A stretch of DNA of 40,464 nucleotides from a virus (lineage: Duplodnaviria > Heunggongvirae > Uroviricota > Caudoviricetes): positions 1 through 40,464 of the IMG/VR virus record IMGVR_UViG_643348545_000008, one strand, 5' to 3'. The translations under genes and the position numbers were made by a program. Below the pieces are notes generated by a model, which was given only the letters and a program-made list of their open reading frames with translations, did no database searches and was not told the DNA's origin. Shown here one piece after another: positions 17,433 to 17,723 of this stretch (positions within the stretch are counted from its first letter, which is position 1; every line of letters begins with the position of its first letter).

Positions 17433-17437
17433 CCCGA

Positions 17438-17655
17438 CCCGGGGGGGGGGATCATCCGGCGTAAAAAACGATCGCTTTGGACACCGCGCCCCCTCTCACG
17501 CAGAGAAAAAATTCCCGTTTCAGGGCAGTTAACATGTTAACTGGCTGCCCGGGCATTTTTGCGGTTTTTATCTTTATTATTCAGTTTGTTGTGCGGAAAA
17601 AATGTTAACAGGCTTTTTCAGCAAATGTTAACCAGGCAGCAGTTAACATTTGCGG
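17438..17655 (+). other. Candidate cos / terminase-recognition region (G10 tract plus repeated GTTAAC-containing motifs)
   Basis: cccgggggggggg at 17438..17450. The perfect palindrome cagttaacatgttaactg at 17526..17543 and three further aaatgttaac-type copies lie between the HNH gene and terS. Confidence 0.4.
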
Positions 17656-17723
17656 CATGAGACGCCGGGAAAAATGGGCTGAACCATACCCGGCTGAGTG
17701 CGTTCTGGACCCGGGAGGAGGCT

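Follow-up and report, generated by a model that had tools for sequence, protein, structure and literature searches.

Where is the DNA of this prophage cut when it is packaged, and which of the sequences around the cut would the packaging machinery read? Both questions are raised by positions 17433-17723 of a 40,464-nt tailed-phage sequence (IMGVR_UViG_643348545_000008; this whole analyzed stretch is called the window below). The region is intergenic, lying between genes for an HNH endonuclease and a small terminase subunit (TerS), and it carries a run of ten G residues and repeated GTTAAC motifs. The original prediction, made from the letters alone, placed a cos site here, with the G run as the cleavage site and the repeats as binding sites for TerS or IHF. 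On reading the sequence from 16800 to 18400, we found all of the listed motifs in place and beyond chance expectation. The interpretation put on them proved right in part: the cos region, plausible TerS sites, and variation in the length of the G run were retained, but the cleavage position was not.

Gene order and lineage of the packaging module

Genes for the HNH protein, TerS, and the large terminase subunit (TerL) are found in that order around the intergenic region, as judged from open reading frames and Pfam matches (Table 1). We take the HNH gene product to be the accessory nuclease of HK97-type terminases. The window TerL matches the HK97 TerL structure 6z6d with an E value of 1.3e-9 over residues 85-534 (phmmer, PDB sequences), and the TerS profile gives a weak match to the SF6 and Pam5 small terminase structures by way of the N-terminal domain. 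A TerL resembling that of HK97 next to a TerS with a weak SF6 likeness indicates a packaging module of the HK97 type that has an HNH partner but whose TerS is not of the HK97 kind, which bears out the placement of a cos region between the HNH and terminase genes.

Several other features of the neighborhood were noted. The prohead protease and major capsid protein are encoded as one 645-aa open reading frame, in which a Peptidase_S78 prohead protease domain is joined to an HK97-fold major capsid domain. A 66-aa DUF3950 protein (PF13132, E=3e-19) is encoded on the minus strand at 16825-17025, just upstream of the HNH gene and near cos. No Rfam family was matched at E<=1 in 16500-18500, and promoter and terminator consensus matches were no more frequent than chance, with none on the plus strand of the intergenic region.

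The segment from the HNH gene to terS is 94-98% identical to its counterparts in numerous Stx1a-, Stx2a-, and Stx2c-converting siphophages of E. coli, among them BP-4795, 2851, 1717, YYZ-2008, JLK-2012, Lys8385Vzw, and phi330 (genus Pankowvirus); for the cos region, identities to the listed close relatives range from 94% to 99%. The rest of the window matches the lambdoid early, lysis, head, and tail modules of those same phages. Genes for tRNA-Met (CAT) and tRNA-Arg (TCG) lie at 8778-8939, upstream of the lysis region; tRNA genes downstream of Q are typical of Stx-type lambdoid phages. Judged by homology, 17433-17723 serves a lambdoid prophage of the BP-4795/2851/Lys8385Vzw lineage as its cos site, which is of the HK97 type (3' overhang). 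The account as a whole, that of an HK97-type, HNH-assisted cos site in an E. coli lambdoid prophage that is Pankowvirus-like and related to Stx phages, we consider likely.

Table 1. Features of the putative cos region and the adjoining packaging and head genes (positions in the window)
Feature	Position	Strand	Evidence or conservation
HNH endonuclease gene	17067-17432	+	Pfam HNH PF01844, E=4.8e-7; 121-aa ORF; directly upstream of cos and terS
G10 run, putative variable-length upstream cos element	17441-17450	.	Conserved in relatives
Spacer of fixed length and variable sequence	17451-17478	.	9/28 columns vary among close relatives
GGACAC, invariant left flank of predicted cut	17479-17484	.	0/6 columns vary among close relatives
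cosN, predicted 10-nt 3' cohesive end CGCGCCCCCT	17485-17494	+	Homology to mapped or record ends
Right flank CTCACGCAGAGAAAAAATTCCCGTTTCAGGG, with A6 tract at +12 to +17	17495-17525	.	3/31 columns vary among close relatives
Perfect 18-bp palindrome CAGTTAACATGTTAACTG, two inverted ATGTTAAC sites	17526-17543	.	
Single AAATGTTAACAG copy	17600-17611	+	Invariant in 88 aligned sequences (87 distinct relatives and the window)
Second perfect inverted pair, GCAAATGTTAAC-N9-GTTAACATTTGC	17621-17653	.	12-nt arms, 100% complementary
terS, Terminase_2-type small terminase	17724-18287	+	Pfam PF03592, E=1.3e-8
terL, HK97-type large terminase	18284-19945	+	Pfam TerL_ATPase and TerL_nuclease
Prohead protease fused to major capsid protein	20009-21946		Pfam

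Predicted cohesive ends

The position of the cut could be approached through the genome ends of related phages. Lys8385Vzw, which is ~96% identical to the window over 17400-17760, was assigned 3' cohesive ends by PhageTerm analysis of virion DNA, with cos CGCCCCCCCT at the genome end (PMC7946995); that paper gives the 10-mer only, and neither the G run nor the repeats. The corresponding record ends in ...GGACACCGCCCCCCCT and starts with CTCACGCAGAG..., that is, CTCACGCAGAGAAAAAATTCCCG. For the Acinetobacter phage fEg-Aba01, the ends were established by PhageTerm together with a heat/cool gel (PMC7354433), and in its record CGCCCCCCAT is annotated as a 3' cohesive end, with GGACAC before it, and the left end starts CGCACGCACAAAAAAAATTCCC. 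In the linear record of the Burkholderia phage Bcep176, both termini carry CGCACGTTCC as a 10-bp repeat, and CTCACGCGCAGAAAATTTTCCC / CTCACGCGCAGAAAATTTTCCCTTTTCAGG comes next; the record of the Pseudomonas phage D3 ends on the right in ...GGACACCGCGCCCCCA, with the terminal 10-mer CGCGCCCCCA. At the equivalent place the window reads GGACAC, then CGCGCCCCCT, then CTCACGCAGAGAAAAAATTCCCG.

Because all four ends, which are independent of one another, coincide at a homologous position, we place the overhang at 17485-17494, and the window prophage is most likely cut at 17484/17485 and 17494/17495. TerL, aided by the HNH protein, would nick the top strand at 17494/17495 and the bottom strand at 17484/17485 to leave the 10-nt 3' overhang. 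Packaging would then proceed rightward into terS and terL, a direction carried over from HK97 and lambda. By the same homology (Lys8385Vzw, fEg-Aba01, Bcep176, and D3), virion ends of the HK97 type, with 10-nt 3' overhangs, are predicted at this site. We class the element as an ordinary HK97-type 3'-cos site, the cut of which has already been mapped in a near-identical phage. The papers on phi330 and other Pankowvirus phages contain no end mapping.

The sequence around the predicted nicks is strongly conserved. GGACAC does not vary in an alignment of 88 distinct sequences and is the same in fEg-Aba01 and D3, and the nick context is GAC/CGC or GAC/TGC (slash at the nick) in all nine phages compared. 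Among 116 close relatives, the 10-mer is mostly CGCGCCCCCT and otherwise CGCCCCCCCT or CGCCCCCCGT.

Two further observations concern the ends. The right end of D3, GGACACCGCGCCCCCA, shares 15 of 16 bases with GGACACCGCGCCCCCT of the window (17479-17494), and the sequences downstream of the cut are unrelated. Since D3 matches here without a related downstream region, and its terS gene was absent from the TerS search matches, the left half of cos looks to be conserved independently of the TerS side. Separately, one close relative (IMGVR_UViG_2681813226_000009) starts with TCTCACGCAGAG... (TCTCACGC), 1 nt upstream of the predicted left end; this start may be an assembly break from packaged linear phage DNA in the sample.

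Could the G run itself be cosN, with the repeats as TerS or IHF sites, as first proposed? It is a conspicuous G-rich run straight after the HNH stop codon, and known cohesive ends of this class are GC-rich, such as TGCCCGCCCC of SfI. The homologous ends, however, put the 10-nt 3' overhang 34 bp downstream of the run, and the mapped ends of Lys8385Vzw and fEg-Aba01, like the record ends of Bcep176 and D3, are at a C-rich 10-mer that lies 30-35 bp past their G runs. A run that ranges from G5 to G13 is also poorly suited to a precise staggered cut, and no match to the IHF consensus WATCAANNNNTTR with <=1 mismatch was found in 17400-17760. Cleavage at the G run is thus very improbable.

A G-rich run upstream of the predicted cut

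What the G run does instead may be suggested by its position. G10 is the sole run of at least eight G or C residues in the 40.5-kb window. With the preceding CCC it covers 17438-17450; the G residues begin 8 nt after the HNH stop codon, and they end 34 bp before the predicted bottom-strand nick and 44 bp before the top-strand nick. Among 106 IMG/VR relatives with full flanks, run length was distributed as G5 (1), G6 (3), G7 (43), G8 (40), G9 (12), G10 (4), and G11 (3); one relative with G13 was also found, for an overall span of G5 to G13. The run is G7 in Lys8385Vzw and G10 in phi330, which was sequenced by the Sanger method. The earlier suggestion that the run might vary by slippage is therefore supported at the population level, with the proviso that these are assemblies and homopolymer sequencing or assembly error could explain part of the length differences.

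Run length varies, but its distance from the cut is nearly constant. We made an anchored comparison of nine phages, most of them with mapped or record-defined ends, and in all nine, HK97 among them, a G-rich run precedes the overhang by 30-35 bp (Table 2). HK022 has G9 and a 32-nt spacer, as in HK97 (counted by eye). Likewise, a G6-G9 run is present at the same distance from the C-rich 10-mer in all 18 aligned Enterobacterales relatives, whose TerS proteins are 33-49% identical and whose hosts include Atlantibacter, Kluyvera, Serratia, Erwinia, and Pantoea; the distance is kept even though the intervening sequence is not conserved. The spacer at 17451-17478 thus retains its length in distant relatives, but not its sequence. 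On this comparison the G run is not incidental, and a G-rich run at fixed distance is conserved across HK97-type cos sites. It is important to point out that the run is proposed as a feature of such sites in this analysis and is no accepted criterion for them.

Table 2. G-rich runs and their distance from the overhang in the nine phages compared
Phage	G-rich run	Spacer to overhang (bp)
Window	G10	34
Lys8385Vzw	G7	34
FSL SP-016 (ends unmapped)	G8	35
fEg-Aba01	G6	35
Bcep176	GGGGAGGGGG	33
HK97	G9	32
phiE125	GGGGAGGGGGG	32
SfV	GGGGAGGGGCGGG	31
D3	GGGGTGGGGCGGG	30

An alternative is that the run has no part in packaging and is a slippage-prone homopolymer at a recombination junction, the left edge of the packaging module. 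The hypervariable length would fit, as would the lineage-dependent upstream sequence: this is the HNH gene in most, something else in two relatives (L130 and L146), and either ISEc20 or a tRNA-flanking stretch in the PPompW prophages. The G run is kept by L130 and L146 as well, even though what precedes it there does not, on inspection, look like the HNH 3' end of the others. There is no reason why a mere junction should keep its distance from the cut constant, and the run is found at 30-35 bp even where the flanks do not align (HK97, SfV, D3, phiE125, Bcep176, and fEg-Aba01), against a chance rate for such runs of ~0.01 per 230 nt. We consider a junction without packaging function quite unlikely.

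The G5-G13 polymorphism could also recall a contingency locus, in which the run would switch expression of the HNH gene or terS by phase variation. The run is in neither gene's reading frame, being located 8 nt past the HNH stop codon and 273 nt before terS, and such a switch is for that reason unlikely. The tract is intergenic and no promoter or terminator is predicted there, although its length does vary, and phase variation is the least probable of the explanations that we weighed.

We also considered which protein might read the run. No G run occurred within the 250 nt upstream of terS at 57 very distant Terminase_2 TerS loci (background, ~0.01 per 230 nt), and we accordingly rejected the run as a TerS-linked feature. 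The terS genes of HK97, SfV, D3, and phiE125 were absent from the tblastn matches to the window TerS (E<=1e-5; organism tally of 114 records, 60 listed). A conserved HNH protein as reader was rejected as well, since pairwise comparison of the window, HK97, and Bcep176 HNH proteins showed no significant similarity. Because a run at fixed distance is common to phages with differing TerS and HNH proteins, it would probably be read by a part of the machine that they share (TerL, portal, or HNH) and not by TerS.

In lambda, cosQ is located upstream of cosN and is met before it at termination. By analogy, the G run is probably a cosQ-like subsite: a conserved, length-tolerant cos element that the motor would reach shortly ahead of cosN on terminating. 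The nuclease domains abut the portal in the HK97 termination complex (PMC10359639), which would put DNA 34-44 bp to the packaged side of the cut inside the portal channel or slightly past it. On this geometry, the G run may plausibly act in pausing, positioning, or holding the DNA end.

Other observations were made in and near the run. Two GATC (Dam) sites are located in the spacer region, at 17449-17452 and 17471-17474, and CGATCGC is seen again in many Enterobacterales relatives, 11-14 bp ahead of the bottom-strand nick. In PPompW prophages (L214; LC567822.1 PPompW_132418, 1146-2604), the IS110-family element ISEc20 is inserted inside the G run, at a site matching window positions ~17441-17450, with G7 on its left and G5 on its right. 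In these prophages, the lysis cassette and the HNH gene are gone between the Q/tRNA region and cos, and cos, terS, and terL are retained with no adjoining HNH gene. One IMG/VR relative has the same HNH-less junction and no IS. Finally, GACCCGGGAGGAGG at the terS ribosome-binding site (17708-17721) and GACCCGGGGGGGGG at the G run (17436-17449) agree at 12 of 14 bases, which is probably a coincidence.

The right flank and the GTTAAC array

Between cosN and terS, a conserved block at +1 to +31 from the cut is followed by the GTTAAC array at +32 to +159. The block (17495-17525) is also kept in Enterobacterales, Burkholderia, and Acinetobacter relatives. In HK97, the TerS site spans +15 to +29 and has an essential A-tract (PMC11331095), and by analogy of position the block is a candidate terminase contact.

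Twelve GTTAAC sites occur in the 40.5-kb window, five of them within 120 bp here. All five share the 8-mer ATGTTAAC or its complement, and their centers are 8, 68, 23, and 15 bp apart, with no helical phasing. AAATGTTAAC is found at 17600-17609 and 17623-17632, and CAGTTAACAT at 17640-17649; in the second inverted pair, which the original prediction does not list, the arms GCAAATGTTAAC (17621-17632) and GTTAACATTTGC (17642-17653) are separated by 9 nt, and their 8-mer cores are invariant. For the three copies outside the sequence by which relatives were selected, none of 24 columns varied, compared with 43 of 156 in the rest of 17544-17723 (Fisher p=0.0014).

The palindrome has a counterpart within coding sequence. 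In alignment A2, it is collinear with GT[TA]AAC[AG]TGTTAAC at the terS start of 18 relatives, in which ATGTTAAC is itself the start of terS (Met-Leu-Thr); conservation of the 8-mer in relatives is thus partly due to coding. The window lineage has ~180 bp of extra sequence before its own terS start (GTGCTGACA), and this sequence bears the three further copies. Leucine codon 2 of terS is TTA in 20 of 23 sequences and CTG in the window and two relatives (L141 and L144), which are those with separate upstream GTTAAC copies. GTTAA repeats recur in phages with a homologous TerS N-terminal domain: fEg-Aba01 has three GTTAAA direct repeats and one TTAAC between the cut and terS, and the Burkholderia phages Bcep176 and vB_E264 have GTTAA-N5-TTAAC at the terS start. 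The invariant copies, the CTG/TTA codon pattern, the recurrence in fEg-Aba01 and the Burkholderia phages, and the lack of the motif in the D3 and phiE125 sequence examined (see below) argue that GTTAAC is a cis element beyond any coding or relic status.

The most likely reading of the GTTAAC sites is that they are TerS recognition sites, a call that we regard as evenly balanced. The A-tract block at 17495-17525 and the five ATGTTAAC sites (17526-17653) would then occupy the position of cosB and probably form a TerS recognition array. In the window lineage, the array seems to have grown from one dyad that overlaps the terS start codon of relatives. Three short open reading frames begin at ATGTTAAC copies: 17534-17608 (MLTGCPGIFAVFIFIIQFVVRKKC), 17602-17631 (MLTGFFSKC), and 17625-17660 (MLTRQQLTFAA), each ending in a stop codon. 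All three open with Met-Leu-Thr, like TerS, which fits an origin of the array from an ancestral terS start. FSL SP-016 and most distant relatives have a lone dyad at the terS start, and the extra copies would therefore be inessential for a cos site of this kind.

Alternatively, the copies may not be TerS sites at all and may instead be relics of a duplication at the 5' end of the ancestral terS (ATGTTAACAG, Met-Leu-Thr) or sites bound by another factor, for instance one that regulates terS transcription or translation. In alignment, the right half of the palindrome coincides exactly with the ancestral terS start; short Met-Leu-Thr reading frames open at the 17602 and 17625 copies; one dyad suffices in most relatives; and the spacing of the copies is unphased, all of which are in keeping with relics or another factor. 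Against this, the three copies outside the selection sequence are invariant while 28% of adjacent intergenic columns vary. GTTAA arrays also lie outside coding sequence in fEg-Aba01, L141, and L144, and promoter-like sites on the plus strand are not above chance. We consider relics or regulator sites unlikely and favor TerS recognition. The initial view of the repeats as TerS or IHF sites is thus kept in its TerS half, for which their position where TerS sites are expected and the signs of purifying selection argue, whereas the IHF half finds no support, for want of a consensus match.

The scope of the motif is limited. It was absent from the sequence examined downstream of the cut in D3 and phiE125, whose terS genes fell outside the TerS search matches. 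GTTAAC was not enriched upstream of 58 very distant TerS homologues, and we accordingly rejected it as a general feature of Terminase_2 TerS genes. A broader reading combines both elements. In it, the G-rich run would be a universal, TerS-independent, cosQ-like signal of HK97-type cos sites, serving positioning or termination and read by TerL, the portal channel, or HNH; GTTAA(C) would be the recognition code of one Terminase_2 TerS clade (that of the Enterobacterales, Burkholderia, and Acinetobacter cos phages), with an array grown from the dyad. We advance this combination tentatively, as somewhat short of an even call.

Comparison with other packaging systems

A near-identical system is the cos site of Lys8385Vzw (MT225100, Stx1) and the Pankowvirus lineage: the intergenic region is ~96% identical to that of the window, the flanks and the GTTAAC array are the same, and 3' cohesive ends were reported for Lys8385Vzw. 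Lys8385Vzw differs in its G7 in place of G10 and in one base of the overhang (CGCCCCCCCT instead of CGCGCCCCCT).

At greater distance, fEg-Aba01 and Bcep176 share with the window a G-rich run 33-35 bp upstream, a C(T/G)CACGC..AAAA..TTCCC block, and GTTAA repeats between cosN and terS. Their TerS proteins are related to that of the window: in fEg-Aba01 the identity is 51% across the N-terminal 49 residues, and in Bcep176 it is 37% across 96% of the protein. The layout of the repeats is different (three direct repeats and one more in fEg-Aba01, one inverted pair in Bcep176), as are the hosts and the remainder of the genomes.

The cos sites of HK97 and HK022 (TerS gp1, TerL gp2, HNH gp74) also lie between the HNH gene and terS and yield a 10-nt 3' overhang. 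Like HK97, the window has HNH and terS/terL flanks, a TerL homologous to HK97 gp2, the nick context GAC/CGC, a G run at a similar distance (G9 at 32 bp and G10 at 34 bp), and, 12-30 bp past the cut, an A/T tract at the place bound by TerS in HK97. Unlike the window, HK97 has a TerS of another family (that of the window is Terminase_2, with an SF6-like N-terminal domain), the overhang CGCCGCCAAA, and no GTTAAC array, and the two HNH proteins have no detectable similarity. The family difference between HK97 gp1 and the window TerS means that the TerS-DNA structure of HK97 may not apply here.

Other systems offer more distant parallels. The lambda cos site is divided into the subsites cosQ, cosN, and cosB (PMC13595911), and it resembles the window in its order of an upstream element, a nicking site, and a downstream array of TerS sites by terS. 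It differs in its 12-nt 5' overhang, its gpNu1/gpA terminase, the lack of an HNH protein, and the IHF sites in cosB; the window TerS is of the Pfam Terminase_2 family and not Nu1-like, and 17400-17760 holds no IHF consensus. A headful pac site of the SPP1/SF6 class, for which imprecise cuts and permuted genomes with terminal redundancy would be expected, does not fit either, as relatives with a homologous TerS have defined 10-nt cohesive ends, and the SF6 likeness of the window TerS is limited to its N-terminal domain. In herpesvirus pac1, G-rich tracts beside a T-rich element direct cleavage at a fixed distance (PMC13595911), a resemblance that we treat as analogy only, given the eukaryotic hosts and other terminase subunits.

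Significance

Two aspects of this site go beyond the descriptions that we found: the fixed-distance G-rich run in all HK97-type cos sites examined and the GTTAA(C) array tied to the TerS clade of the window. A literature search on the overhang sequences and on G-rich tracts in cos or terminase contexts returned no account of either the G run or the array; the original HK97, D3, and SfV genome papers were outside its scope, so an earlier mention is possible.

Taken together, the analysis supplies predicted virion genome ends for the prophage and shifts the predicted cut by ~40 bp. The corrected ends would be useful for re-orienting Stx-phage genomes, for the design of cos plasmids, and for transduction assays. 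HK97 is the structural model of cos packaging, and to our knowledge only the TerS site downstream of its cut has been defined so far. A G-rich upstream element that is shared even where the TerS and HNH proteins are unrelated makes a candidate for the signal, as yet unexplained, that would govern termination or positioning. The GTTAA arrays, in turn, may help to show how TerS proteins of the SF6-like kind recognize DNA at a cos site.
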